Positions 1-40,040 of a DNA stretch of 64,000 bases are shown one piece after another (the first letter of the stretch is position 1; every line of letters begins with the position of its first letter). A program made the position numbers and the translations under genes. The notes beneath the pieces were generated by a model. That model did no database searches. It was not told where the DNA came from and was given only the letters and a program-made list of their open reading frames with translations. Source of the DNA: Deltaproteobacteria bacterium (GTDB lineage: Bacteria > Bdellovibrionota_C > UBA2361 > JAGFJO01); NCBI GenBank assembly GCA_024102635.1, contig JAGFJO010000044.1, positions 26,453-90,452 on the forward strand, read 5' to 3'.

Positions 1-976
1 ACGCGCCGCACTCGCGCTGCCCGGCCTTATAAAATATCTGCAGCGCGAAAAGCCGGCCGCTCTTTATGCAACTGTGGCTCACGTTAATACCTTGGCGATA
101 ATCGCTGCAAAGCTCTCCGGATCTCCCGCCAAAGTCATAGTGCGCGAGTCTAGCGCTCCGTCTGCCGAACAGATACATACCGCCTCCGCCAGAATAACTC
201 ATGCCCTTTCGCATGCACTCTATCGATATTCCGACGGCATAATTGCCGTTTCGAACGGGGTACGCGATAAGCTGGCCTCCTTGATGCCGGCTGCCGCAGA
301 GAAAATTAGAGTTCTGCCCACTCCGGTTATTGATGAATATATTTTCAGCCTGGCGGAAGGCGAGATCGAACATCCATGGCTCAAAAACCGCGAACTTCCG
401 GTAATACTCGGCGCAGGGCGGCTTGTAGAGGAGAAAAACTTCGCGTTGTTAATTCGAGCGTTTCAGGCTGTAGTGCGAAGGCGGCCGGCAAGGTTAGTTA
501 TTTTAGGAGAGGGGCGGTTGAGGAGTTCGTTGACCGAACTGATTGATAGGCTGGATCTAAATCACTCGGTATCGATGCCTGGATTTAGAGTTAATCCGTT
601 CCCCTATTTAAAACACTGCGATCTCTTCGTTCTATCATCCGTATCTGAAGGGATGCCGAATGTATTGCTGCAGGCTATGTCTTTCGGAACGCCGGTTGTA
701 GCCACTGACTGCCAGAGCGGGCCGCGCGAGTGCCTTTCAGATGGATACTACGGAGATCTGGTGCCTTTAAATGATCCGGCCTCATTAAGTGAAGCCATGC
801 TCCGTTCAATCGATTCGCATAGACGCAATGACGCAGCTGCGTATGTGATGCAGAATTACTCCGTGAGCGCGGCAACCAAAGCCTACCTGAGCCTGGCGGG
901 AATCGGTACCATCAGCCGGGATACAGCTCCCCGGAACGAGGTTCCTCTGCTTGCGGGGTTCGAGGCTGTGCAATGA
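1..976 (+). CDS. Glycosyltransferase family 4 (group 1 GT), 5' end probably outside the window
   Basis: C-terminal GT-B signature EGMPNVLLQAMSFGTPVVATD; the ORF begins with GTG at 74 but the GT4 N-domain appears to run to the window edge. Confidence 0.8.
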   Translation, partial: RAALALPGLIKYLQREKPAALYATVAHVNTLAIIAAKLSGSPAKVIVRESSAPSAEQIHTASARITHALSHALYRYSDGIIAVSNGVRDKLASLMPAAAEKIRVLPTPVIDEYIFSLAEGEIEHPWLKNRELPVILGAGRLVEEKNFALLIRAFQAVVRRRPARLVILGEGRLRSSLTELIDRLDLNHSVSMPGFRVNPFPYLKHCDLFVLSSVSEGMPNVLLQAMSFGTPVVATDCQSGPRECLSDGYYGDLVPLNDPASLSEAMLRSIDSHRRNDAAAYVMQNYSVSAATKAYLSLAGIGTISRDTAPRNEVPLLAGFEAVQ

Positions 977-1126
977 TACCTCCTCCACTCGACACCGCCT
1001 AGAAGGACTCGCTTGTGGAAAGCCATTCATTGTGGTCAAGTGCAGAGGTTCTAAGCACATTTATTTACCGGGCTCACGTCACACGATTAGTGGCAGAAGA
1101 GCGCTCTTGTCAGTGCAGCACAGGTG

Positions 1127-2482
1127 TCAGTGCACAGGTTGGTATAAGCCGCGTTCAACGGCTCTAATATCCGCTGCCGATGGCGTCCTGTCCTCCCCTA
1201 CTTGGGCGTAGACGACGTAAAGCTTCGGTGGGCGGGACGCCGCCCACCTCCAGCGCGCTTTCACTGCTGATTCGGTCAACAGCATGCCTAGTAGCATGAG
1301 AAAGGGGCGCTGTTCGAGTATATTGTGACTGAAGAATCCGCCCACAATAGCGACCGTAATAAGGCCCATCCCGGCAGGACATTCCCGTTTGAAATAAACC
1401 CACCAAGAACCGATTAGCAGCATCAGATAGGCGAGAAGGCCTAATAGTCCGCAGTTCACCCACTGCTGCAAGTAAATGTTATGAGGAGGAGTTTCCAGAA
1501 AGCGGCTATGGCCTGTGCCGTGGCCTAATATCGGTGAATCATCTATTTTCTCAAGAGCTGCCTTTGCAGCTTGAATTCTATCACTGCTCGATCCGTCGTC
1601 GATCTGGCTATTGCCGCCCAGTCTATCGAGTCGCGTTCTATAGCCTTCGAACATCGCCGTGTTATTGGCTAACAGCACTGCAACTAGCGCTATAGAAGCA
1701 AGCAGCACCACAATAGATGCGATCCATGCAGCAAGTCTTAAAGCGCTCCATCCTCCTGCTGCCTGACAGTAAATGAAATAGAAGGACAAAAGCGCCAAAA
1801 ACTCTAAAATACCGCTGCGAGACTGTGTCGTGAATACGCCAACCGCGGTCAGTCCGAGGTAAAATAGATCTCCTTTCTTCATCACGGTTGCAGTGCGATA
1901 TGTCAACGACGCCGCGCATAAAAAATTAAGGACGAGGGCGCCATAATTGGAATTACCTGGAAATCCCGCCGCCCTTGATGGCACTACAGAGAAGAAGCCG
2001 GGCAGCATCAAGTCCGTCATCATCGAGAGAAAGAGCGCTACTAAAGCCGCCCGCGCGAAGATTAGGCGCGCACTTCGGAAGCGGCGGTGCAGCAGCAAAA
2101 ACAACGAAAGCACAAAAATTATAAATCCATAAGAATCCAGAAAAATATATTTGGCCCCGTCATGCCAAAATGCTGTAGGGTGCAAGGCCCAGGCAAAGGA
2201 GGCACAAACAATCAGCAGAAATGCAGAGATTGGAAGCAGATTAGCCTCTACCGTCTCCCTTATTGGCAGACCTCTATCTTTAAACCCCGAAACGGTCGAT
2301 ACAACAGCGATCGGAAGCAAAAGCAATATCGCCATGATCGTGGGCGTTGAGATGTAGCCGAATTTCCCAAGCGCCATATCACCCGTGCTCAAGAAAATCG
2401 CACACACAAAAACCACATAGGCATTAGCCAAGATAACTACAAGACGCTGCTTCGAGGTGATATTACTCATACTGAATCGCAT
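1127..2482 (-). CDS. O-antigen ligase/polymerase-like (Wzy/WaaL family) polytopic membrane protein
   Basis: About 10 predicted TM helices with a large periplasmic loop; sits among GT and flippase genes. Confidence 0.6.
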   Translation of the reverse strand: MRFSMSNITSKQRLVVILANAYVVFVCAIFLSTGDMALGKFGYISTPTIMAILLLLPIAVVSTVSGFKDRGLPIRETVEANLLPISAFLLIVCASFAWALHPTAFWHDGAKYIFLDSYGFIIFVLSLFLLLHRRFRSARLIFARAALVALFLSMMTDLMLPGFFSVVPSRAAGFPGNSNYGALVLNFLCAASLTYRTATVMKKGDLFYLGLTAVGVFTTQSRSGILEFLALLSFYFIYCQAAGGWSALRLAAWIASIVVLLASIALVAVLLANNTAMFEGYRTRLDRLGGNSQIDDGSSSDRIQAAKAALEKIDDSPILGHGTGHSRFLETPPHNIYLQQWVNCGLLGLLAYLMLLIGSWWVYFKRECPAGMGLITVAIVGGFFSHNILEQRPFLMLLGMLLTESAVKARWRWAASRPPKLYVVYAQVGEDRTPSAADIRAVERGLYQPVH

Positions 2483-2605
2483 GGTTTACATTACGTCAAT
2501 CAGATACCCTTCAGAACATTCTTATCATGATCCTCGTAAGCCATTTTAGGAGGATTTAAGCAGCGGTATGGATCATGCTGTAAGAGCCGATTATCCGGAT
2601 GAAAA

Positions 2606-4135
2606 ATGATTGATCGCGATCAGCTAAGCTCAAAAGTATTGTCAGGCCTGTCGTGGTCTTACTGCTCTGCCGCCATTGACGCCATCTCCCGTCTGGCCAT
2701 CATATCGATTCTCGCTCACCTTCTTACGCCCAGAGACTTCGGAATCGTCGGACTGGCAATTATCTTCACTACCTTCGCCGAACGGGTGGGACAATTTGGG
2801 ATCGGACCGGCAGTTGTACAGTCAGAAATTCTAACCCGCCGCCACATCGATTCTGCCGTCGTAATATCCCTAATCACAGGGCTTGTAATGGCTGGCACTT
2901 TATTTATGGCCAGCTACCCAATAGCGGGCTTTTTCAAAGAGCCGATATTACAACCGGTAACAGCTGTGCTTGCTCTTGTATTTATATTTGACGCAATAAC
3001 TCAGGTACCACTTTGTCTTCTCATGAGAGACATGCAGTTTAAGCAGCTCATGATAGTGGAAAACGGGGCGTATCTGCTGGGAAGCGGCGCCATGGGTATC
3101 GCGCTTGCTCTAAGCGGATTTGGCGTGTGGGCATTGGTGTTTTCGCACCTAGGATCGCGGCTAATAAAGCTTCTACTAACTCTAAAAATGTCACGGTCCG
3201 GCTGGTCGATCTCTATACACAAACAGGAGGCGTCTCAGCTTTTTCGCACCGGCGTTGGTTTCAGTTTAGGACGATTGCTGAACTTCGTCGCGCTTCAGGG
3301 AGATAATCTGGTAGTGGGCCGATTTCTGGGAGCCGCTGCTTTAGGTCTATATAGCAGGTCATACCAGCTAATGACGCTTCCTTCGACCTATATCGCTCAA
3401 ATAATCGATCGCGTCCTTTTTCCTGCAATGGCTCAACGTCAAAGCAACCCTGCCAAACTAAGTGCAGTTCTACTGGTAGGAATCGAGCTAATAGGACTGG
3501 TGTCGCTGCCTTTCTCCGTTTTTGTGCTGCTTTTTTCACGGGAGATAATTTCACTTTTGTTCGGATCTCATTGGATTGGCGCCGCCGGTGTGCTGCAGGT
3601 GCTCTCCCTTGGGATTTTTTTTAGGTGCGCCTATAAATGTGGAGATACCGTGCTGAGAGCTTTAGGCGCCGTTTTTCAGCATGCCGGAATACAGGCGGCC
3701 TATGCTGCGCTTGTGATCGGGGGTTGTATTCTAGGCAGCCGTTGGGGACTAACAGGAATAACAATTGCGGTTCTAGCGGCTGTATTCATCAACTACCTGC
3801 TTTTGTCATACCGCGCCCTTCAGCTGTTGAGGTTGAATGTACAACAATTCTTAGCTGCACATCTTCCGGGTATATGGCTGAGCGCCGCTCTTGCGGCCGT
3901 ACTGCTACCACTACAAATTTGGATCCGTTCAGTGACCTCCTCTGATTTGGTGGTTCTGCTCACCGCTGCCTCTGTCAGTACTGCGGTGCTACTCGCGGGC
4001 AGCAGAGCCGCACCGGACGGCTTCAAACCTATTGAAAGCGCCAAGCTCCTGGGAAGGCTTCAAAGACCATACTGGCTGCTGCGCGGAGCCGAGTTCGTCA
4101 CCGGCATGCAGATGCGGGCAGCCGAGAGGTTGTAG
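2606..4135 (+). CDS. Wzx-type polysaccharide flippase (MOP superfamily polysaccharide biosynthesis protein)
   Basis: 509 aa with 12-14 TM helices and typical Wzx hydrophobic architecture; the stop is 1 bp before the next GT start. Confidence 0.7.
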   Translation: MIDRDQLSSKVLSGLSWSYCSAAIDAISRLAIISILAHLLTPRDFGIVGLAIIFTTFAERVGQFGIGPAVVQSEILTRRHIDSAVVISLITGLVMAGTLFMASYPIAGFFKEPILQPVTAVLALVFIFDAITQVPLCLLMRDMQFKQLMIVENGAYLLGSGAMGIALALSGFGVWALVFSHLGSRLIKLLLTLKMSRSGWSISIHKQEASQLFRTGVGFSLGRLLNFVALQGDNLVVGRFLGAAALGLYSRSYQLMTLPSTYIAQIIDRVLFPAMAQRQSNPAKLSAVLLVGIELIGLVSLPFSVFVLLFSREIISLLFGSHWIGAAGVLQVLSLGIFFRCAYKCGDTVLRALGAVFQHAGIQAAYAALVIGGCILGSRWGLTGITIAVLAAVFINYLLLSYRALQLLRLNVQQFLAAHLPGIWLSAALAAVLLPLQIWIRSVTSSDLVVLLTAASVSTAVLLAGSRAAPDGFKPIESAKLLGRLQRPYWLLRGAEFVTGMQMRAAERL

Positions 4136-4136
4136 A

Positions 4137-5315
4137 ATGAAAGGCGATCCCTCCAAGATAATGCACTGTATTACTTCGCTTCATGGCGACGGCGCACAAC
4201 GCATGCTGCTGCGGCTTACTACTGCACTTAATGAACTCGGCCTGAATAACATAATCGTTTCACTTAGCGGCAAAAGTGAACTCGCTGAAAACTTCAAGAA
4301 GGCCGGCTCCACGGTACTCGAGCTGTGCATGCCCGCTGGCCGTCCTACATTCGCCGGCTTTCTGCAATTGACAAGGTTAATCAAGCGGCATCGTCCCGGC
4401 ATAATCCAGGGGTGGATGCATCATGCCAATCTCGCAGCGACGGTGGCAAGTTGGGCCTCCGGCGTCAGGCCGTACGTATATTGGAATATCCGCAGGTCCC
4501 TCTACGATCTAAGCTATGACGGCCTCTCAACAAAGGCGGCAATAACGCTGGGTGCTTTGCTCTCGCACCATACACGAGCGATTATCTACAACAGTGATGT
4601 CAGCAGACGCCAGCACGAAACCATCGGATACTGCGCGAAGCGTTCGATTATGATTTACAATGGGTTCGACTATAGTAGATATCGTCCAGATCCATCGGCC
4701 CGAATTGCGCTGTTGCAACGCTTGAATATTCCCGGGGACGCTATAATCGTGGGCTGCGTTGGAAGGTTCCACCCTCATAAGGGTCAGAGCTATCTTTTGG
4801 AGGCAATTCCCCACGTAGTGGCAAAGGTGCCGCACGCTCATTTCGTGCTGGCTGGCCGAGAGGTCGACGCTCGAAATAATGAGATCGCGCGGCTTTTGAA
4901 AAATAGAGAAGTATCAAATGTGCATCTACTCGGAGGATCAGAGAACGTCGAGAAGTTAATGGCGGCTTTTGACGTTTACTGTTCCCCTTCAACTAGCGAG
5001 GGGTTCCCGAATGTACTTGCAGAGGCGATGTCATGCGGAGTTCCGTGTGTGGCAACAGATGCTGGAGCATCGGCCCAGCTGCTGGAAGGACTCGGACTTA
5101 TCGTAGAGAGAGGGAACTCAAGTGCTATTTCACAAGCCATCCTTTCGATGATTCAGCTCGGGCCGCTAAAGCGGGCGAAACTTGGCGAACTCGGGCGCCG
5201 GAGAATAACAGAACAGTACTCTATGGAGCTCGTGATCGAGAGATACCGCCGTTTATATCTACCAGAGACGGCCCTTGCGCCGGCGGCTATAGCGGGTCCA
5301 TACGTAGGCGTCTAA
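4137..5315 (+). CDS. Glycosyltransferase family 4
   Basis: N-terminus MKGDPSKIMHCITSLHGDGAQRMLL and the EGFPNVLAEAMSCGVPCVATD motif; GAGG RBS before the ATG at 4137. The track start at 4032 overlaps wzx and is unlikely. Confidence 0.85.
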   Translation: MKGDPSKIMHCITSLHGDGAQRMLLRLTTALNELGLNNIIVSLSGKSELAENFKKAGSTVLELCMPAGRPTFAGFLQLTRLIKRHRPGIIQGWMHHANLAATVASWASGVRPYVYWNIRRSLYDLSYDGLSTKAAITLGALLSHHTRAIIYNSDVSRRQHETIGYCAKRSIMIYNGFDYSRYRPDPSARIALLQRLNIPGDAIIVGCVGRFHPHKGQSYLLEAIPHVVAKVPHAHFVLAGREVDARNNEIARLLKNREVSNVHLLGGSENVEKLMAAFDVYCSPSTSEGFPNVLAEAMSCGVPCVATDAGASAQLLEGLGLIVERGNSSAISQAILSMIQLGPLKRAKLGELGRRRITEQYSMELVIERYRRLYLPETALAPAAIAGPYVGV

Positions 5316-5417: not shown

Positions 5418-7208
5418 TTAAGTTTTACTCTTACGTTGCCTTTTTAACCTCAGTCTTTCGAGCTTGTTCTCCCTTGCACGAATCAGACGGCGAAGCGCCT
5501 TCCCTCGTATGTTGAGAGAAGCAAGCACTCTTCTAGCCTTTTTGCACGAGCGCGATTTATCATCACGGCAAACAACTCTGCTTTTAACCAGCTCTAACCG
5601 TTTTAGCGCCGCACAAGACCCGGAAGGGGCACTTGCCGGGCAGCCTTTGCCGCCACCTGCTCTGTGCTGCTTCTGCTTGTTTTTCTTCTTCGATTTTTTC
5701 CCCTTTCCCTTCTGCTTCTTTTTCTTGCCGTCCGACGGCTTGTTTGGTTGGGCGGTAGGCGTATTAGGAGAACCCGGTGTAGCAGCAGGTGGCTTAGGAG
5801 AGGACGGCGGCTTGGTTGCATCCGGCGGCTGGGCCGGGGTCGGACCTCCCGGGGCGGCTCTTCGCCCTTCCACCTCGGCAGCCATAGAGTGTAACCACTC
5901 CTCCAATATGGTGTATCCGTTTCCATCCGGGTCAGAATTGAAATTATCAGGCACTGAAAGTGCTCTATAGTTTTGCGCCCTGGCAGGCCACCCACCTGCA
6001 TGGCGGGAGCATCCTGACACACAATCCTTTAGCGTCCCCGTACCATTAGCCACCTCAGAGATCACTCTCGCATCGACGTCGTTTCGATCAGCCGGCCTAG
6101 AGCCTGCATTGGCCAGAACGAACTGAAATGTATCGCTTGGTGAACGGGCCGCAGTGGTCATGTTAAGTGGCGGCGATGACGCTTGATATGGGGACTGCGG
6201 CATGCTGGAGATCAACCACTCGCTGCCGCTATTGGTCGGCCGTGTCGGGCCGATGTTATTACTCACGTATGCGCGAGAACCGGATTCCAGATTGCGGCCA
6301 TACAATGGGGCATGAAAGGGGCTGTTTGGTCCTCTCTTATAGACGTTTCCCACCATGTTAAGAAGGATCGGAGCGCCAACGTTGGTGTCGTCGGACATAT
6401 TCATCAGATTCGATCCGCTCGTACCGCCCCAGTTGTAAATGACGTTGTTGATAAAATCTATCGTCGCACCCGCCTTCAACCTGATATTGCGGTCATTGTT
6501 GTGGGCAAATAAAGAATTATGAACCGATATACGAGTTGTAAAATCGCCAATCAGCATGCCCGAACCGTGAGGACCTTCAGGATGAAGAGAGTCGTGAAGC
6601 GACTCCGAAACAATGCTCTTGCTGAATGTGACCTCATGGGTTGATGAATGGTAGGTGCTAGCGTTCTCATCAATTCCCCAGCTGATGGAAAGATGATCTA
6701 GAAATACCTTGTAAGCCCGTCTGCTGCTGGAAGACGTTCCAACTGTCAAACCATCACGGCTCTCTGCCTTCGTGCCCGCTCCATCGCCCGGTCTCACCTC
6801 CATGTGCTGCACCAGTACATTGTGGGACTCTATGCGTAGAGAGGCGCCGGTTAGAAGAATTCCCGGGCTTGGAGCCGTCTGCCCCGCAATAGTGATGTAC
6901 GGACTTCGAATGCTGAGATCTTGGGTTAGTTTAATCTGGCCCGAAACCTCAAAGACACAGACTCTTGGCACCACCGCATCGACACACTCCCTAAGCGAAC
7001 CGCTTCCGCTGTTGTTTAAATTAACCACTTTATAAACAGTGGTTCGCGGGGTAGAGAGATGGCGCCCGCTTCCCGCCACAGTATCCGACCCATATCCTTC
7101 CGCACCGGGAAAGACGGGAACCTGAGCGTTAACGGGCGCCGAAGTAGCACTAACTGCCAGTGCCGCTATCAAGAAGGTTGCGGCGAACCTTGAAAAACCA
7201 ACTGCCAT
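5418..7208 (-). CDS. Secreted pectate-lyase-like polysaccharide lyase (PL1-like beta-helix) with C-terminal Pro-rich linker, poly-Lys tract and Cys/basic tail
   Basis: Signal peptide MAVGFSRFAATFLIAALAVSATSAPVNAQ. PL1-like motifs GAEGYG...GSGSLR, VFLDHLSISWGIDE and HNNDRNIRLKAGATIDFINNVIYNWGG. Tail reads PAQPPDATKPPSSPKPP...DGKKKKQKGKGKKSKKKNKQKQ. Confidence 0.6.
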   Translation of the reverse strand: MAVGFSRFAATFLIAALAVSATSAPVNAQVPVFPGAEGYGSDTVAGSGRHLSTPRTTVYKVVNLNNSGSGSLRECVDAVVPRVCVFEVSGQIKLTQDLSIRSPYITIAGQTAPSPGILLTGASLRIESHNVLVQHMEVRPGDGAGTKAESRDGLTVGTSSSSRRAYKVFLDHLSISWGIDENASTYHSSTHEVTFSKSIVSESLHDSLHPEGPHGSGMLIGDFTTRISVHNSLFAHNNDRNIRLKAGATIDFINNVIYNWGGTSGSNLMNMSDDTNVGAPILLNMVGNVYKRGPNSPFHAPLYGRNLESGSRAYVSNNIGPTRPTNSGSEWLISSMPQSPYQASSPPLNMTTAARSPSDTFQFVLANAGSRPADRNDVDARVISEVANGTGTLKDCVSGCSRHAGGWPARAQNYRALSVPDNFNSDPDGNGYTILEEWLHSMAAEVEGRRAAPGGPTPAQPPDATKPPSSPKPPAATPGSPNTPTAQPNKPSDGKKKKQKGKGKKSKKKNKQKQHRAGGGKGCPASAPSGSCAALKRLELVKSRVVCRDDKSRSCKKARRVLASLNIRGKALRRLIRARENKLERLRLKRQRKSKT

Positions 7209-7470
7209 TTGAACCTCTCTGGTTACGAATTAACGAAAAAACGAGAACCCACCCAGGTGACCCGGGCACAACCGGAAAAACCAAGGCAAGCATAATGCCA
7301 GTCATAGACAACAACACGGGGGCCTCTAGCACAAGCGTGGCGGATGATTTATTGATGCAGAATTTGAGATGGTGTTGCACTGCTTCTGGTGAAAACTTCC
7401 GAAACTACGCAAAAAGATAGGATCAAAATGACGTTGGTCAAAGGTATAAAATGAATTCTTGCCCAAAAAA

Positions 7471-7501
7471 AAATGAAAACCTCCGTTTGGAGGTTTTCAT
7501 T
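7471..7501. terminator. Bidirectional rho-independent terminator
   Basis: AATGAAAACCTCC-gttt-GGAGGTTTTCATT with a perfect 13-bp stem; A9 run on one side and T-rich on the other; 44 bp downstream of the minus-strand gene ending at 7544. Confidence 0.7.
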
Positions 7502-7543
7502 TCATTTAAACAACGATGGTGTGGTTCGCGATGCGAGACGCCG

Positions 7544-8758
7544 TTACTTAGAGCGAATCTTCGCTTTCGTCCCGGCCTTGCGGGCCTGCTTTTTAATCAC
7601 AGAGGAGATCGCTTTTGTGCACAAAGCTTGCCCACTGGGCCTCTGAGATCTCTTCTCGATTGACTGCAAAAGTGGATATTCCGAGAATGTGGAGTACCCG
7701 CTGGCCTGAAGATAAGTATCAACCAGCTTCCTAACCGATTTTTTCAATTTTACATTCCTGGGCGATGCTCCGGCAGTTGTAATAGTTTGCCCCAGGCCAT
7801 TTTGGTAATCCGCGACTGTCAAGTTAACCAGCTCATCGACCCTAAGATTGTTCGCCAAGAGTAGGGAAGCGATGATCTTGTCTCGCAGGGCGGTAAGAGT
7901 CTTGAATTTTGAGCGAAGAATTCTCTTTTTGAACTCGCGGGCAATCTTTACCTTGCCGGCGGGCCTAATATCACCGCCCTCGCAGAACGACGCATTAAGC
8001 ACAGCCGGAGGAAGATTTTCCACCTGGCGGCACTCCTTAGCGAAGGTGCTGTTGGAGGTAAACCGCTCCTCGGTTGAAGCGTCAACAAGAGTGAAATTAT
8101 CGATTCTTACCCGCCCATGTGCGACCGGCACAAAGACGCCGAAGGCTGATACCGGTCCAGCCGAAGGCAGCGCAACACCTGAATTTGCCGGTGGTACCGG
8201 CCCCACCCCAGGGGTGTCTGGAGAGGTGCCATAGGTAAGCTCATGAGGTGACAATACTACCGCCTCGAAAAACCCTCGATCTACCTGGCGGGTGACCAGG
8301 TCCGAAAAATACCAGGTTCCGTTAATCAATAGCGCTAACTGGGAGCCGTCCGGGACTCCTTCGAGACTTATACCGCTAAGCCTTTGGTGGTATTCAACCT
8401 GAACGAGGCTGGAGACGTCGAAGCTTAACTCCTCAGTGTAAATTGTAAGCCCGCTAACCTCTCGTGCCCAGAATCCGGCCCCATCCTCAGAACCTCGCGG
8501 ATTGGAGTTTATATCCGTTACATTGCCAGGGCCTCCTGGGGGATGCACCTTCAAGTTTCCGATTTTTGCGCGTCTTATGCCTGGTAAAACTGCGCGCCAA
8601 TCCGCCACCTCAAAGGCATTACGGTGCGGGTTGTGAGCTGACCCGCAGTAGCTGAAGGTCTCGCGGTAGAATGGTGTAGCAGAAGCAGGTACAGTTGCCG
8701 CTAACGCCACTAACATTACTACTATAAAGGAAGTTGATTTGTGTGTTGCGTTTTCCAT
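7544..8758 (-). CDS. Secreted hypothetical protein whose C-terminal ~130 aa resemble a truncated tyrosine-recombinase catalytic domain (box I, no HxxR/Y)
   Basis: Signal peptide MENATHKSTSFIVVMLVALAATVPASA. C-terminus ALRDKIIASLLLANNLRVDELVNLTVADYQ...KKSVRKLVDTYL...PLLQSI...ISSVIKKQARKAG matches the integrase box I/box II pattern; the ORF stops before the HxLRH/Y region. Confidence 0.5.
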   Translation of the reverse strand: MENATHKSTSFIVVMLVALAATVPASATPFYRETFSYCGSAHNPHRNAFEVADWRAVLPGIRRAKIGNLKVHPPGGPGNVTDINSNPRGSEDGAGFWAREVSGLTIYTEELSFDVSSLVQVEYHQRLSGISLEGVPDGSQLALLINGTWYFSDLVTRQVDRGFFEAVVLSPHELTYGTSPDTPGVGPVPPANSGVALPSAGPVSAFGVFVPVAHGRVRIDNFTLVDASTEERFTSNSTFAKECRQVENLPPAVLNASFCEGGDIRPAGKVKIAREFKKRILRSKFKTLTALRDKIIASLLLANNLRVDELVNLTVADYQNGLGQTITTAGASPRNVKLKKSVRKLVDTYLQASGYSTFSEYPLLQSIEKRSQRPSGQALCTKAISSVIKKQARKAGTKAKIRSK

Positions 8759-8923
8759 AATGACATTCCCTCGTATTTAGGAATGTCAAAGTAACAACTG
8801 ACGATGCTCCGCTCAAACAGTGAATGCAGCCGCTTGGGTGAGTCCGATCATGACCGATGAAAAAAAGCTGCGTTTGGGCGGCTATGGATTGACGAGCGTT
8901 AAAGTGAAAAGGCGCGGGCTTGG

Positions 8924-9286
8924 CTAGTGGAGAATTATCTTCTTTGAATCGGAGCCATCTATAATCTCCGTTTCCTGAACTCCCCGGTGAACCTGTACGC
9001 CGTGCACGTAGACTTTGGCCTCAAAATCCCGTGCCATTTTTTGCAGTTTTCGCTTTATCTGCATTAACTTCCACCCGACGAAGGCAACCACTATCCCCAT
9101 CGAGATGAACAGCAGCGCGATTAACCCGAGAAAAAAAGTCGGTGCGACAATGATGCCGACTCCAATCAGCAAAAGAACTAAACCGGGTGAGACCATGAGC
9201 ATCTGCTCTCGGTCGGCCTTAAGAGCGGACACATGAGATTTCATTGACAAAAACATCTCTTTTGGAAGCTTGCGAGGCTTTTTCAT
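8924..9286 (-). CDS. Small two-TM membrane protein, hypothetical
   Basis: 120 aa with two hydrophobic helices and a basic juxtamembrane region; no recognised family. Confidence 0.35.
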   Translation of the reverse strand: MKKPRKLPKEMFLSMKSHVSALKADREQMLMVSPGLVLLLIGVGIIVAPTFFLGLIALLFISMGIVVAFVGWKLMQIKRKLQKMARDFEAKVYVHGVQVHRGVQETEIIDGSDSKKIILH

Positions 9287-9446: not shown

Positions 9447-9932
9447 ATGAATGCACAGCAAGCAATTCAATCGCTCTCTTCAATCCCGATCGATTTTAAC
9501 TATTGGATTTTACAATCGATTGCCATGGGCATCACCTGCTTCCTGATCAGAGGTCTTTCTCTCTCCAGCCCTCTAGGAGCGCTTTTTATAGTGCTTGGCC
9601 TGGCATTTGTGAATTCCTTTGCCTGGGATGCGGCGCTCTTTTTCAGTATTCCCGACCGGTTCACATATCATGCGGCACTTCTTCTTCTAATGAACGGCTT
9701 GATTTTTTGGCTGCTGGTTAAGCTACTGCCGGGAATCGAGGTTAGAGGGATTTTGCCGGCGTTGATTGCTCCTGTTGTATTTACAATCACTAGTATGCTG
9801 ATTGAGAAATATGGCAATGACCTTTCCGTTGGCGCCGTATTTCAGATCCTGTTACATCAAGTGCAAGAATTAAAGGAAATGCTGCTCAGCGCAGCACCGG
9901 CAACCGAACATGCAGCCCTCACACAACCCTAA
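9447..9932 (+). CDS. 4-TM membrane protein, possibly phage-holin-4 superfamily-like
   Basis: 161 aa with four hydrophobic segments resembling the PF04020-type small membrane proteins; weak. Confidence 0.35.
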   Translation: MNAQQAIQSLSSIPIDFNYWILQSIAMGITCFLIRGLSLSSPLGALFIVLGLAFVNSFAWDAALFFSIPDRFTYHAALLLLMNGLIFWLLVKLLPGIEVRGILPALIAPVVFTITSMLIEKYGNDLSVGAVFQILLHQVQELKEMLLSAAPATEHAALTQP

Positions 9933-19169: not shown

Positions 19170-20600
19170 TTAACACTGAGAACTACCGATACACCGATTC
19201 GCATTTATCGGGCCGTAGCATTTTCCACCGAAATTCGCGTAAACATTGGGGCTACCGCTGCTGCGCTCTGCGTTACGAGCCACAGTTGCGCCGTTATACG
19301 CGGTACTCGACCCACATCCTATCCCGGCATAGTAGCGTGCTGCCCATCCGTTACCGGTTGCGTAAAGTCCGAGGTAGGCCGCTACTTTTCCGTTACGGTC
19401 AACCATGGAGATACAGTTAGGGAAAGGCCCCCGTGTACCGGGCTTGAGGATTAAACCAATGGTGTTGCGCCGAATATCGGTAAAGTGGTGCGAGCCTATC
19501 GTTTTATAGATATGACTGCTCGGCCATGAAGAGATAGAGTTACAAGAGGCCACATCCGAGGGGCCTCCACCGCCGCCGCTATCATCGTCATCGTCATCAT
19601 CGTCTCCTCCGCCGCTTTCCGATCGTAAGGTGTTTATATTGATGTGATCGGTCGGGATGCCATCGGCGGTAGCAACACTTGACGATTGGCCGTCAAAAGC
19701 GTTGTAGGTCGTGAATCCAGCAGAGGTCTTGATTGCTACCTCCTCTCCGGGACTAGAGGTAAAATTGCCCACTATTACATCTCCTGTACCGGGCAAGGTG
19801 CCGATGGCGATCCGGCTTCCATCAAAGTTATGAAAGTGTACCTCTGTATTGCCTGCCTTTTTCTTTGTAAAGCCAAGCACATCTATTCCACTTGCTTGCC
19901 GGACAGGAAACGGCCTCGGCCTAGCTCCCTTGCTTATAAATCCCGGAAACTTCGATATAGTTCTCGATTCTCCAGTCAGCGGATTTTTCAGTTTGATCTG
20001 CGATCGTCCTTTCTTATTTTTACCTGCAACCCCCAGCCAATCGAACGCGCCATCCGGGCTTGCAAAGAATATCCTATCTCCGGCGACTCCGAATCTCATC
20101 GTTGATGGGTTCTCCTGGCCTACCGCTCTATCAAACATGTCATACGATATGCTCCATTCTACGCGGCCTTTCTTTAATCGAGCCACTGCTGCATCTGCCT
20201 TCCCGTTTCCGTTAAAGTCCGCTCCGGAGATCGCTGTATCGCCATCACTGCCTAGTTCGCGCTCCTCCATGGTGGACTGGTCGTTTATGATCTTCCAAAG
20301 AAGCGCTCCGCTTGTATCATCAAGCGAAACCACTCCGATCTGAGGCGAACTCAGCCCCTTCCAAGGAGCAATGATTAAATGATCTCCCGTGCTCCCAATC
20401 GAGCCCAACGTGCTTGAGATCCCAGTTAGGGCACTTGTATAGCTCCAGTTCAGCGCCTGGTTCTGCTGTATCGAGACGAGCACATATTCGGAAACTCCAT
20501 CGTTATCAAAGTCTGTCTGTGTTGTTTGTGCTTCAACTGTGCGGAGTGCAAGCAGTGCTAGAATGAAGACGAATGAGATTCTCTTGATTAATTTAAGCAT
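19170..20600 (-). CDS. Secreted FG-GAP/VCBS-like repeat protein with poly-Asp/poly-Gly linker and Cys-containing C-terminal domain
   Basis: Signal peptide MLKLIKRISFVFILALLALRTVEAQ; DNDGVSEY and FNGNGKADAAV repeat motifs; GGGDDDDDDDDSGGGGG. Confidence 0.55.
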   Translation of the reverse strand: MLKLIKRISFVFILALLALRTVEAQTTQTDFDNDGVSEYVLVSIQQNQALNWSYTSALTGISSTLGSIGSTGDHLIIAPWKGLSSPQIGVVSLDDTSGALLWKIINDQSTMEERELGSDGDTAISGADFNGNGKADAAVARLKKGRVEWSISYDMFDRAVGQENPSTMRFGVAGDRIFFASPDGAFDWLGVAGKNKKGRSQIKLKNPLTGESRTISKFPGFISKGARPRPFPVRQASGIDVLGFTKKKAGNTEVHFHNFDGSRIAIGTLPGTGDVIVGNFTSSPGEEVAIKTSAGFTTYNAFDGQSSSVATADGIPTDHININTLRSESGGGDDDDDDDDSGGGGGPSDVASCNSISSWPSSHIYKTIGSHHFTDIRRNTIGLILKPGTRGPFPNCISMVDRNGKVAAYLGLYATGNGWAARYYAGIGCGSSTAYNGATVARNAERSSGSPNVYANFGGKCYGPINANRCIGSSQC

Positions 20601-20871
20601 CGGACTAACCTTGTAAACTTCCTTCATTACTCCATAAACCGGATTGGTGCACCACCCGGTAAATTCTTGAAAGGACACCCTGCCATAAGGACACCGTGGC
20701 GCAACCATTTAGATGAGCGGCCGGCGCAAAATGTCGCGGCTTGGGAACAAATATACCCAATTAAAAACGCTCAAGATCAGGAACTTCCTGGCCGTTCTTA
20801 TAGGTGATCTAACGGCATATAACTTGCAGACTTTAATTTAAACCCAAATTTTCAAGCGACTACGGAGTTTT

Positions 20872-35083: not shown

Positions 35084-35947
35084 TTAGCCTCCCAAGAGCT
35101 GGAGCGCTAGCTGTGGCTGCTGGTTAGCCTGTGCAAGAATTGCGGTTCCTGCCTGCTGCAGAATCGTTAAGCGAGTCAGTTCTGCAGCTTCGAATGCGAC
35201 GTCCACGTCGCGAATTCGGCTCTCCGCTGCTGAGAAGTTCTCCCTAGCAATCTGCAAATTTTCAATTGTTGTGGCAAGTCTACTCTCCGCAGCACCCAAA
35301 GTACCGCGATTTCGAGTAACCGAGACTATCGCTGTGTTAACCGCATCGAGCGCCTGCCGTGCTGCGGACTGTGACAGCTCGTCCGTTGCGCCGGTGATTG
35401 AGTATGTGTGTACCGATGAGTTGGGCGAAGCTAGCCCCAAGGCCGCGAGAGTCGCTTGTACTCCCGAGTACATGACCTGCGAGAGGGAGCTTCCGTCAAA
35501 CCCCACCTGAAAAGTTACATTTCCCCCTCCGCTGAGCAGATAGAGCCCGTTAAACTCTGTAGTGACAGCGATACGCTCTACCTCGCTCATAAGAGCGCTA
35601 AACTCAAGCTGCAGCGCCGATCGCTGGCCATTGCTGAAAACTCCGTTAGCTGATTGCTCGGCAAGTTCTGCCAGACGGCTTAGAACGTTTGTTATCTGGC
35701 CAATTGCGCCGTCGGTAATGGCAATAACCGAAATGCCGTCATTTGCATTTCGAATCGCCACTGTTGCTACCCGTGCGTCGGCTTTCAGGCTCTCGGCGAT
35801 TGCGAGTCCGGCTGCGTCATCCTTTGCCCTGTTGATTCTTAAACCGGAAGAGAGCCTCTCGTATGCGGTCCTGAGTCTCTCAGTTGACAGCCCGATGTTC
35901 CTCTGGGCTGCTAATGATGGTAAGTTAGTCCTAATATTGAGTGTCAT
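35084..35947 (-). CDS. fliC: Flagellin, short 287-aa type
   Basis: N-terminus MTLNIRTNLPSLAAQRNIG...LSSGLRINRAKDDAAGLAIAESL and C-terminus ESRIRDVDVAFEAAELTRLTILQQAG...LAQANQQPQLALQLLGG. Confidence 0.85.
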   Translation of the reverse strand: MTLNIRTNLPSLAAQRNIGLSTERLRTAYERLSSGLRINRAKDDAAGLAIAESLKADARVATVAIRNANDGISVIAITDGAIGQITNVLSRLAELAEQSANGVFSNGQRSALQLEFSALMSEVERIAVTTEFNGLYLLSGGGNVTFQVGFDGSSLSQVMYSGVQATLAALGLASPNSSVHTYSITGATDELSQSAARQALDAVNTAIVSVTRNRGTLGAAESRLATTIENLQIARENFSAAESRIRDVDVAFEAAELTRLTILQQAGTAILAQANQQPQLALQLLGG

Positions 35948-36064
35948 TTGCTACCATCCTTTTGGTATTTACCGCTTAATCCTGTTCAACAGTTTACCTC
36001 CAGTTTTACTTCTCATAGCGGGAGCGAGACTCACTATGGAGCGGCGCTCCCGCCGCGGGCTTCA

Positions 36065-36928
36065 TTATCCACCGAGCAGCTGCAGCGCGAGCTGCGGCTG
36101 AGCGTTAGCCTGCGCCAAGACGGCTGCGCCGGCCTGTTGCAGAATGTTAATTCTCGTTAGCTCAGCGGCCTCAGATGCTACATCAACATCCCGGATGCGG
36201 CTCTCGGCAGCCTTAAAGTTTTCGCGGGCCACTTGCAGGTTACTGATAGTAACCTCGAGCCGGCTTTCAGCCGCCCCCAAAGTACCTCTGTTCCGGGTAA
36301 TCGAAACGATAGCAGCATTAATTGCATCAAGGGCCAACCGAGAGGCGCTTTGCGAGAGAATGTCGGTCGAGTCAATAATTGAGTAGGTAACCGCCGAGGT
36401 TCCAGCTGGTGCTAACCCGAGCGCAGCAAGGGTTGTTTCTACTCCGGTGTATGACACTTGCGAAGTCGAAGCAGCATCGAAGCCGACCTGGAAAACCACC
36501 GTACCGGCGCCGCTCAGCAGTTTGAGTCCGTTGAATTCAGTAGTGAATGCGATACGCTCAATCTCACTTGTCAACGCGGTGAACTCGTTAGCAAGGGCTG
36601 ATCTCTGCGTATTACCGTACACACCGTTAGCCGATTGCTCGGCCAGCTCTGCAAGTCGGGTGAGAACGTTTCCAATTTGGCCGATCGCTTGATCGGCAAT
36701 GGAGATTATGGAGATACCGTCGCTGGCATTTCTGATAGCCACCGTGGCTACACGAGAATCGGCCTTCAAGCTCTCGGCGATAGAGAGACCGGCCGCGTCG
36801 TCGCGAGCGCGATTTATCCGGAGACCTGACGATAACCGCTCATAGGCGGTGTTCAATAATCCCGTCGAAGCGTCGAGGTTGCGCTGCGCTATGAGTGAAG
36901 GAACGTTGGTGCGAATATTGATTGCCAT
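36065..36928 (-). CDS. fliC: Flagellin paralogue (287 aa), in tandem
   Basis: MAINIRTNVPSLIAQRNL...; conserved D0/D1 termini; about 60% identical to the neighbour. Confidence 0.85.
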   Translation of the reverse strand: MAINIRTNVPSLIAQRNLDASTGLLNTAYERLSSGLRINRARDDAAGLSIAESLKADSRVATVAIRNASDGISIISIADQAIGQIGNVLTRLAELAEQSANGVYGNTQRSALANEFTALTSEIERIAFTTEFNGLKLLSGAGTVVFQVGFDAASTSQVSYTGVETTLAALGLAPAGTSAVTYSIIDSTDILSQSASRLALDAINAAIVSITRNRGTLGAAESRLEVTISNLQVARENFKAAESRIRDVDVASEAAELTRINILQQAGAAVLAQANAQPQLALQLLGG

Positions 36929-38165: not shown

Positions 38166-40040
38166 ATGGGAAGCTCTCAGCTCTTTAACAAAGGCGAACT
38201 TTTCGCTGAACGTTACAAGATCGAGCGCCACGTGGGTGATGGCGGTATGGGCGATGTGTACCTAGCACTAGATCTATTTTTAAACGAACAGCCGGTAGCC
38301 ATAAAAATAATCCAGCCCGACCTTCACAAAGATCCTTTGATAGCTCATCGATTCATGCGGGAGGTACAGATAGCCCGCGGCATTACGGATCGGCGCGTTG
38401 TGCGCACCTACGAATGTGGAGAGGTTGAAGGCAAGCTTTACCTCATAATGGAATTTGCGGATGGCGCTACGCTCAAGGAGATTCTAGCAGACGGCCCGAT
38501 GGATTGGGTGTCAGGTGCTAAAGTGGCTTACGATCTCTGCATCGGACTTTCGGCCATTCATGCCGCTGGAGTTATTCATCGAGATCTTAAGTCCAGCAAT
38601 GTCATTCTGACTTATGATGGACAGACGAAGATTTGCGATTTCGGAATTGCCCGTCCCAATCAGTCAGAATTGACGACCGGCGGCCAGATAATCGGCAGTG
38701 CGCAGTACATGGCACCGGAACTTTGGAGTGGCTCCGATGTGTCTTTCGCTGCTGACCTCTATGCTCTTGGGGTCCTTCTTTTTGAAATCGTCTCGGGTAC
38801 ATGTCCATTTTGCTCGGAGATCCCGGCGCAGCTAATGTACCATCATCTTTCAACCCAGCCGACATTCAGTGTCCAGACTATCGATACTACTCCCTCAGAG
38901 ATGCGCGAGTTGATTGTAAAACTGCTTGAAAAAGACCCGAAGCGGCGGCCCTCCATTCGAGAAGTGATGAAAGGGCTGGGAGAGATCCTGCTTAAAGCCG
39001 GAATTCCCCTTCCCGCTGTGTCATCCGAGTCCATTACCTTCCCCTCCTCCGGCAGCAACAAAATCAACCTTGATATCGCCGTTGATGCTCCACCTCCCAT
39101 TTTCTCATCGGCCACATTTGGGACAAGCGGTGCTCACTCATCAATCAGGACCTCCATCATTCAAAGCATGCTTATTAACGAGCAAAGGCGCCCCATAAAA
39201 GATTGGAAGATAGCCATAGTTGTCTGGTTGGCGATCATAGGCTACCTGGCCTTCATTGCATATGAAAAGCGGCATTCAGAGCAAGGCGCATTCAATCCCT
39301 TCCTGCAACAGGGGAAAGCAAAGGAGGTTTCGCCCTTTGAGCTACTAGCTCATTTCTCTGCTGAGACGTTACAATTAAGTGCAGGTTCCGCGGTCCCCGG
39401 CATTTCGGCCATCAATGCCAGTGCTCTCTCTCTCTCCCAGGCGGACGAGAGCTTCCGGCCCTCGTTAGAGATCCTTGAACTTAAAAGCGGCAGTCAACTT
39501 CCTGTATTACGCTTTGACGGAAACAATTATCTGGCGGGGGACGGACTGGCACGCAAAATCCGCTCGTTGAACGCGGTGAGTGTAGTGCTGATAGGAAGAA
39601 TGGAGCCGTCGCATCAGCTCGCCACCCTCTGGTCGATAGAACAAGGAAACGAGTATTCTGTAGCTCACATTCAGCAAGATCCTCATGGGAGAGTGATCCT
39701 GCGTGCAGGATCGAGTGTTGAAGGAAATACGGACGCGGTAGCCGGGCCGATCGATCTAACAGATTTATCTATTGTAACTTCGATAATTGACCCCGCTAAA
39801 GCGCGCCTTTTTATTAACGGTAAGCCAACCGTCGAATACTACATAAAGAATCATATTCGCTTTTATGAGTCAGCATTTTTTAGCGTTGGACAAAGCTACA
39901 CCAATAATCAAAAAACGCACTTCCTGAAGGGGGATATCGCTGAAATTTTAATCTTCTCAGGAGTGCTTCCTGAGGAGCAGCGGCTTGATTTGGAGAGGGA
40001 GTTGGCTGGAAGATATTCAATCCAGATACTCTCAGATTAG
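38166..40040 (+). CDS. Hanks-type Ser/Thr protein kinase with TM segment and extracellular LamG (Laminin_G_3) domain
   Basis: HRDLKSSNVIL, DFGIAR and APE motifs; TM IAIVVWLAIIGYLAFIAY; C-terminal FLKGDIAEILIFSGVLPEEQ LamG-like signature. Confidence 0.8.
   Translation: MGSSQLFNKGELFAERYKIERHVGDGGMGDVYLALDLFLNEQPVAIKIIQPDLHKDPLIAHRFMREVQIARGITDRRVVRTYECGEVEGKLYLIMEFADGATLKEILADGPMDWVSGAKVAYDLCIGLSAIHAAGVIHRDLKSSNVILTYDGQTKICDFGIARPNQSELTTGGQIIGSAQYMAPELWSGSDVSFAADLYALGVLLFEIVSGTCPFCSEIPAQLMYHHLSTQPTFSVQTIDTTPSEMRELIVKLLEKDPKRRPSIREVMKGLGEILLKAGIPLPAVSSESITFPSSGSNKINLDIAVDAPPPIFSSATFGTSGAHSSIRTSIIQSMLINEQRRPIKDWKIAIVVWLAIIGYLAFIAYEKRHSEQGAFNPFLQQGKAKEVSPFELLAHFSAETLQLSAGSAVPGISAINASALSLSQADESFRPSLEILELKSGSQLPVLRFDGNNYLAGDGLARKIRSLNAVSVVLIGRMEPSHQLATLWSIEQGNEYSVAHIQQDPHGRVILRAGSSVEGNTDAVAGPIDLTDLSIVTSIIDPAKARLFINGKPTVEYYIKNHIRFYESAFFSVGQSYTNNQKTHFLKGDIAEILIFSGVLPEEQRLDLERELAGRYSIQILSD

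Follow-up and report, generated by a model that had tools for sequence, protein, structure and literature searches.

In the stretch of DNA analysed here (64,000 nucleotides of contig JAGFJO010000044.1 from assembly GCA_024102635.1, hereafter the window), a gene on the reverse strand encodes a predicted exported protein of 404 amino acids, in which an N-terminal β-jelly-roll is joined through an acidic linker to the front part of a tyrosine-recombinase catalytic domain. The product of the open reading frame (ORF) is identical to J5J00_04370, an NCBI protein from a metagenome-assembled genome (MAG) labelled 'Deltaproteobacteria bacterium', and it belongs to a conserved family with the same two-domain layout. 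The gene and its parts, all on the reverse strand, are as follows; the carbohydrate-binding module is abbreviated CBM, the AlphaFold2 model AF2, and its per-residue confidence, the predicted local distance difference test, pLDDT.

7544-8758, reverse strand: complete gene for the exported two-domain protein, 404 codons plus stop, with an ATG start and a TAA stop (read from the ORF and the sequence)
8767-8772, reverse strand: Shine-Dalgarno-like hexamer GAGGGA, 8 nt 5' of the ATG (read from the sequence)
8678-8758, reverse strand: predicted Sec signal peptide, amino acids 1-27, cleaved between ASA and TP (Lys in the n-region, hydrophobic core with a Kyte-Doolittle value of 3.3, AxA site)
8081-8677, reverse strand: N-terminal β-jelly-roll, lectin- or CBM-like, amino acids 28-226 (AF2 model, weak Foldseek matches)
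7985-8080, reverse strand: acidic variable linker, amino acids 227-258, containing Cys243 (family alignment, low pLDDT, charge)
7547-7984, reverse strand: C-terminal truncated tyrosine-recombinase catalytic half-domain, amino acids 259-404 (PF00589, NCBIfam and PDB profile matches, AF2 superposition)
7470-7503, reverse strand: intrinsic terminator-like site that ends the gene, a 15-pair stem and T-run about 40 nt past the TAA stop

For the C-terminal domain, homology to the catalytic domain of tyrosine recombinases, which had been proposed in an earlier sequence-only reading of the gene, is established by profile and structure comparisons. The Phage_integrase profile PF00589 matches amino acids 288-402, corresponding to profile positions 19-128 of 172, with an E-value of 7.2e-6 for the whole protein, and the last 138 amino acids scanned alone reach E 5.5e-7 and 30.0 bits, above the gathering score of 27.1. 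The NCBIfam models for XerA, XerC and XerD give partial matches on the same residues, and a profile of the family matches the solved structures of a XerA-like protein (4a8e, E 7.4e-9), XerA (5hxy) and XerD (1a0p). The AF2 model of the domain, with pLDDT values of 80-94, superposes on XerD 1a0p over 133 columns with a root-mean-square deviation of 3.4 Å and 28% identity, and also on XerA 5hxy and Cre. Motifs common to the family and its nearest full-length integrases, P0104, P0105 and P0140, include 'LRDRA' (box I, with the catalytic arginine Arg I), a 'VNV..DY' turn, 'PLF' and a 'KRRA..AG' helix.

The truncation of this domain is equally well established. The ORF had been noticed to stop just ahead of the HxxR box and the Tyr, and the family proteins do end 0-8 residues short of the 'CHxFRATG' box II of the aligned full-length integrases. 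In the alignment with these integrases and in the 54-sequence family alignment, the family lacks the HxxR motif, the second His/Trp and the Tyr nucleophile, and the β-hairpin Lys (Lys-beta) is not conserved. In recombinases, Arg I makes contact with the scissile phosphate; it is kept in the window protein as R292 (nt 7883-7885) and in 50 of the 54 aligned members. Going by the established mechanism of tyrosine recombinases, the domain is predicted to be unable to cleave or join DNA, and the protein to recombine it, because Arg I is all that remains of the catalytic residues. The Phage_int_SAM profile, which represents the SAM-like core-binding domain on which the sequence specificity of recombinases depends, has no match in the window protein at E ≤ 10, and the N-terminal part is all-β instead. 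The missing box II and Tyr were not found downstream, either by tblastn with five complete integrases as queries (word size 2, E ≤ 100) or in the three-frame translation of 7100-7560 on the reverse strand, and the strong terminator reported at 44 nt after the stop is indeed present there as the stem and T-run listed above. No other integrase was found in the 64-kb window, where tblastn with the five integrases finds just amino acids ~260-404 of the studied ORF; weak integrase-like matches at 32.9-33.1, 35.2-35.4 and 37.2-37.3 kb fall on a response regulator, a flagellin and an SLT transglycosylase and were discarded as chance.

The C-terminal domain is also more basic than its recombinase counterparts. 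Its net charge is +21 and its isoelectric point (pI) 10.5 in the window protein, and all 28 members compared have a charge between +15 and +26 with a pI of 10.3-12.0; in genuine integrases, the corresponding segment has +5 to +13. The same part of PF00589 (positions ~20-118) was recovered by profile search in two tandem copies in P0090, P0095, P0110 and P0128 (~275-305 amino acids), and the truncated portion is present in five copies in P0081 (871 amino acids). These proteins have no signal peptide, box II or Tyr, and they seem to put the half-domain to a different use, one that is apparently undescribed. The occurrence of tandem copies in unrelated proteins, together with the pLDDT of the half-domain itself, argues that it folds as an autonomous module.

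For the N-terminal domain, the motifs YRETF, QRLSG, WYIS and GRVRIDNF are conserved in the family, no Pfam or NCBIfam model matches, and the YRETF...WYIS...GRVRIDNF jelly-roll, which recurs widely, is a candidate new domain family. The AF2 model built from a 75-sequence alignment is an all-β jelly-roll with a pLDDT of 94 and a predicted template modelling score (pTM) of 0.91. Foldseek searches against PDB returned weak matches throughout, to the calreticulin lectin domain, CIA30/NDUFAF1, CBM11, CBM22, CBM27, ERGIC-53 and a hyaluronan-binding module, and those against BFVD returned weak matches to phage tail-fibre and minor-tail modules; every one of these is a type of binding module. Relatives of the domain (P0057, P0072, P0070, P0088, P0112 and P0131 among them) occur in two kinds of protein: stand-alone copies behind a signal peptide carry PEP-CTERM (PF07589; 8 of 75), IPTL-CTERM or dockerin tails, and others lie inside large proteins with CBM96 and GH16, CHB_HEX_C_1/Fn3_assoc, BNR_2 or bacterial TSP3 repeats. 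PF07589, with its PEP motif, transmembrane (TM) helix and Arg cluster, was not found in the window protein or in the two-domain family. Because of these occurrences with sorting tails or glycan-active domains, the modelled jelly-roll is taken to be extracytoplasmic and probably glycan-directed. The region had previously been taken as one exported domain of ~270 amino acids; its export is upheld, but it resolves into the jelly-roll at amino acids ~28-226 and a linker. The linker is short in the window protein (~30 amino acids), with pLDDT below 50 at amino acids 235-251; it is 70-110 amino acids long and rich in Pro, Thr and Asp in most relatives, and its net charge ranges from -1 to -12 across the family.

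Export signals are present throughout the family. The N-terminus of the window protein reads MENATHKSTSFIVVMLVALAATVPASA up to the cleavage site and TPFYRETF after it, with K7 and with n-, h- and c-regions as in a classical Sec signal peptide, which bears out the signal peptide that had been assigned to it. In each of the 54 aligned members, a positive n-region and a hydrophobic core lead up to an AxA-type site that directly precedes the conserved YRETF. In the same alignment, Cys38 and Cys243 are lost jointly in four sequences and never singly, and Cys259 and Cys380 are both present in 52 of 54. Such correlated cysteine pairs would fit disulfides formed in an oxidising compartment and thus an extracytoplasmic protein.

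The family comprises ~50 cluster representatives that are 25-45% identical and derive from uncultured Bdellovibrionota MAGs and metagenomes. A word-indexed protein search returned, besides the identical J5J00_04370, 27 further proteins with 30-44% identity, most of them spanning 87-98% of the query, and a HMMER profile search over 1.84 billion representatives returned 49 proteins at E ≤ 1e-30, of which ~35-40 are full two-domain proteins. The layout common to the 28-sequence alignment is a variable signal peptide, an N-domain of ~200 amino acids, a variable acidic Pro-rich linker and an integrase-like domain of ~145 amino acids, and the C-terminal end point is shared as well, lying 17-34 amino acids past the conserved Cys380 in 50 of 54 sequences. 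Scanning the GTDB species genomes with a 12-sequence subset alignment yielded 16 loci, and nearly all of the MAGs that contain them, recovered from lakes, rivers and estuaries, are labelled Bdellovibrionota, Bdellovibrionales or 'delta proteobacterium'; two paralogues are present in the genome L001. In closer pairs compared codon by codon, the ratio of nonsynonymous to synonymous substitution rates (dN/dS) lies at 0.05-0.06 in the N-domain and at 0.09-0.15 in the C-domain, values that are approximate, being computable for few pairs and with synonymous sites near saturation. These low ratios place both domains under purifying selection.

The surroundings of the gene include the following features.

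74-5315: genes for a GT4 glycosyltransferase, Wzy, Wzx and a second GT4
5418-7208, reverse strand: secreted PelZ-like pectate lyase of 596 amino acids (NF041900, E 4.7e-67, under the equivalog cut-off; no Pfam match)
8924-9286, reverse strand: two-TM protein of 120 amino acids without a family match, 165 nt upstream of the gene
9447-9932, forward strand: divergently oriented four-TM protein resembling Phage_holin_4_2
19170-20708, reverse strand: homologue of a ~470-amino-acid secreted protein found at related loci, ~10 kb from the gene

These are followed by genes for RsgA, UDG, a VWA protein, DsbD and AhpC and, further off, MltA, catalase, an MqnC-like protein, TrpRS and two flagellins. The window is ordinary chromosome with housekeeping and exopolysaccharide (EPS) genes; GC content is flat across the region of the gene without any anomaly, and no mobile-element genes were found in the 64-kb window or at 18 related loci. 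The absence of a mobile-element context is thereby established, and the gene cannot serve, as had been considered, as a sign that the adjacent lyase/EPS region was horizontally acquired.

Several neighbours deserve comment in their own right. The PelZ-like lyase has a Pro-rich linker and a strongly Lys/Arg-rich C-terminal extension (KKKKQKGKGKKSKKKNKQKQ...RLRLKRQRKSKT) and shares with the studied protein a plan in which a linker connects a secreted domain to a polycationic C-terminus, which hints, by analogy, at polycationic C-terminal attachment as a theme in the source organism. The two-TM and holin-like neighbours are not kept beside homologues. The second GT4 ORF (4032-5315, forward strand, TTG start) overlaps the ORF of the Wzx-like flippase (2606-4135, forward strand) by ~100 nt, and its true start is probably farther downstream, since the Pfam match begins at amino acid 53. 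The two tandem flagellin genes each encode 287 amino acids, and close by is one for a Ser/Thr protein kinase with a C-terminal concanavalin-like (Laminin_G_3) domain; these features lie at 35084-36928 on the reverse strand and 38166-40040 on the forward strand.

For the related loci, comparison revealed the same two-domain layout, the same truncated end and, in many cases, a common set of neighbours. In 14 of the 18, genes for a P1B heavy-metal ATPase (TIGR01525), a secreted protein of ~470 amino acids of no recognised function and a protein of ~120 amino acids come after the gene on its own strand, and FtsJ/TlyA and a PilS-like two-component pair often lie before it. This conserved trio characterises the ~460-amino-acid subgroup (L002, 9968-14582, and 13 other loci); the ~470-amino-acid protein is Cys-rich and FG-GAP-like, and the ~120-amino-acid protein is a Cys-rich membrane protein. 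The window gene, L001 and L004 lack the ATPase synteny, and for this reason the neighbourhood is read as lineage synteny and not as an operon. A conserved operon partner was likewise rejected, as the recurrent neighbours amount to the ATPase and secreted proteins of no recognised function in one subgroup only. The syntenic neighbours were also considered as a trans-complementing C-terminal half, but the 118-amino-acid protein is a zinc-ribbon-like membrane protein and the 463-amino-acid protein a secreted Cys-rich protein, and both are unrelated.

It is plausible, with a probability of roughly 0.6, that the gene encodes a two-module protein, conserved, exported and without catalytic activity, in which the half-domain of recombinase origin binds polyanions or serves as an anchor to them; the binding or anchoring role is what we infer from its properties. 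Removal of the signal peptide would leave a mature protein composed of a lectin/CBM-type jelly-roll of ~200 amino acids, a flexible acidic linker and a half-domain of ~145 amino acids. The half-domain descends from the first two-thirds of a catalytic domain, with loss of the whole HxxR-His/Trp-Tyr subdomain and of the β-hairpin Lys; it keeps only the phosphate-contacting Arg I, has turned strongly polycationic and is probably disulfide-stapled. It would no longer take part in DNA chemistry and would bind or anchor to extracellular DNA, lipopolysaccharide (LPS) phosphates or acidic exopolysaccharide, thereby holding the N-domain, which resembles glycan-binding modules, to the cell surface or the matrix. 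Its position would be the C-terminal site that is occupied by PEP-CTERM, IPTL-CTERM or dockerin anchors in relatives of the N-domain, and both modules jointly might act as a surface or matrix adhesin or cross-linker. A more specific version, which we put forward tentatively and would sooner doubt than accept, is that in this family the tyrosine-recombinase fold has given rise to its first extracytoplasmic derivative, a polycationic 'half-CAT' (half of the catalytic, CAT, domain) that is stabilised by disulfides and exapted in Bdellovibrionota as an extracellular nucleic-acid or polyanion binder; joined to a new lectin-like domain, it would link extracellular DNA or LPS with the glycans of the matrix or of prey surfaces.

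Several observations weigh against this polyanion-binding interpretation. The C-domain is less conserved than the N-domain (mean identity 25% and 42%, respectively), and Arg I is substituted in a few divergent members, hence phosphate contact via this residue would not be universal. The pairings Cys38-Cys243 and Cys259-Cys380 are deduced purely from covariation. Export is predicted in general terms, and periplasm, outer surface and medium are all possible destinations. Glycan binding by the N-domain is suggested only at the level of the modelled fold, for which the Foldseek scores lie at E ~1e-3 to 1e-5 with TM-scores of about 0.3-0.5, and even the best of them are weak (calreticulin lectin domain, E 8e-4; TM-scores of 0.48 for CIA30, 0.49 for CBM11 and 0.53 for CBM22). 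Lastly, the downstream P1B ATPase kept in one subgroup is not explained by the proposed model.

Among the other explanations, the one that survives best, although it appears unlikely, is that the protein handles DNA in the periplasm or outside the cell, retaining some chemistry or recognising DNA specifically, as in the capture of prey or environmental DNA by predatory Bdellovibrionota. Arg I is nearly invariant, the domain is highly basic and derives from a DNA-binding enzyme, and Bdellovibrio is reported to secrete proteins that act on DNA (PMC7925074). However, a domain that lacks the Tyr nucleophile, HxxR and Lys-beta has no known catalytic route, the core-binding domain is absent, and the proposal presupposes a predatory lifestyle in these MAG lineages.

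A less probable explanation still, which we consider quite unlikely, is that the C-domain is not a ligand binder but the recognition or sorting domain of a dedicated export or surface-attachment pathway, comparable to PEP-CTERM or to the C-terminal domain of the type IX secretion system (T9SS). The domain does take the place of PEP-CTERM, IPTL-CTERM or dockerin in relatives of the N-domain, its extreme C-terminus is conserved in the family with a hydrophobic-basic pattern, and the neighbouring secreted lyase likewise ends in a polycationic segment. Nevertheless, it is a folded unit of 145 amino acids without a TM helix or known sorting motif, no conserved sortase- or exosortase-like partner occurs in the synteny of the related loci, and an exhaustive profile search did not find the domain on other cargo proteins.

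Very little speaks for a membrane-anchored cytoplasmic DNA binder, in which the hydrophobic N-terminal segment would stay uncleaved with the C-domain facing the cytoplasm. Such a location would be native to a recombinase-derived domain, but a single hydrophobic segment with a positive n-region places the bulk of the protein outside, and the AxA motifs in 54 of 54 members, the correlated cysteine pairs and the surface-sorted relatives of the N-domain all point to the same side.

Refuted by the conservation of the family is the scar of a lost mobile element, one of three possibilities that the sequence-only reading had raised, in which the 5' end of an integrase was swapped by an in-frame fusion and its 3' end decayed. 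The presence of only part of a catalytic domain and the adjoining EPS/lyase region, of a kind that is often horizontally acquired, speak for it. It is contradicted by the same architecture and end point in ~50 divergent representatives (25-45% identity), which are not recent copies of one decaying element, as well as by a dN/dS of ~0.1 (~0.1-0.15 for the C-domain), the lack of a box II or Tyr remnant in any frame before a clean terminator, and the housekeeping synteny and flat GC without att-like or mobile-element genes at the loci compared. The second possibility, a sequencing or assembly chimera of an exported-protein gene and an integrase fragment, could appeal to the MAG source and to a domain junction in a low-complexity linker but can be dismissed, as the identical junction architecture recurs in independent JGI, ENA, Logan and NCBI assemblies from many samples and in the 16 GTDB species genomes. 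It was the third possibility, a recombinase-like fold co-opted by an exported protein, that the evidence came to favour.

Tyrosine recombinases are regarded as strictly intracellular DNA enzymes, and the known exaptations of them, such as TnsF and the eukaryotic Crypton-derived genes, stay nucleic-acid-directed and intracellular. The present family would be a somewhat surprising example of domain exaptation, or of a pseudo-enzyme, with a putative function. That selection has conserved half a catalytic domain in proteins with a signal peptide and paired cysteines shows this subdomain to be an autonomous folding unit that can be redeployed outside the cytoplasm. Two unannotated modules, the YRETF/WYIS/RVRIDNF jelly-roll and the half-CAT, are defined in proteins that are now 'hypothetical protein' in MAGs, and a PF00589 match in such proteins marks neither an integrase nor a mobile element nor the boundary of a genomic island. 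Bdellovibrionota are a phylum known for secreted proteins of a predatory, envelope-active kind, and if polyanion binding is true, the family would bring in a novel sort of module for attachment to the surface or matrix.

Compared with the Xer and phage-integrase recombinases (PF00589; XerA 4a8e and 5hxy, XerD 1a0p, and the metagenomic P0104, P0105 and P0140), the likeness is confined to amino acids ~260-404 against the first ~110-125 residues of the catalytic domain, with box I and its Arg I kept as 'LRDK/LRDRA' in the family. Unlike these enzymes, the family has no SAM-like core-binding domain, conserved β-hairpin Lys, HxxR, second His/Trp or Tyr, and it has a signal peptide, conserved cysteines and a more basic domain, with no mobile-element or dif-type context. 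The protein is a derivative and not a member of the tyrosine recombinases, because it shares partial homology with them and differs in catalytic residues, core-binding domain, cytoplasmic location and element context. The tandem half-integrases resemble it in using the same truncated part of PF00589 as a stand-alone module but differ in their tandem arrangement, in the lack of a signal peptide and jelly-roll, and in being presumably cytoplasmic.

In the PEP-CTERM, IPTL-CTERM and dockerin surface proteins, the N-domain is homologous, with profile-search E-values reaching ~1e-15, and likewise lies behind a signal peptide, and the logic of a binding module with a C-terminal attachment element is common to both; in the studied family, however, the C-terminal element is a folded polycationic domain derived from a recombinase. 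Literature searches found no published description of an exported recombinase-derived domain. The nearest conceptual precedent is TnsF, which derives from a tyrosine recombinase, has been inactivated and selects DNA targets for the Tn6022-like Tn7 transposons (Faure et al. 2023, PMC10293859). TnsF is cytoplasmic, has core-binding-like (CB-like) and CAT-like domains together with zinc fingers, and binds comM DNA inside the transposon (PMC10293859). No TnsABC or other transposon genes that would indicate a Tn7-like context occur in the window or at the 18 related loci. TnsF and the studied family are alike in missing the Tyr-bearing part and in a non-catalytic binding role, which for the family is a proposed one, and they differ in that the family is predicted to be exported, retains half of the CAT domain only, is fused to a jelly-roll and is chromosomal.

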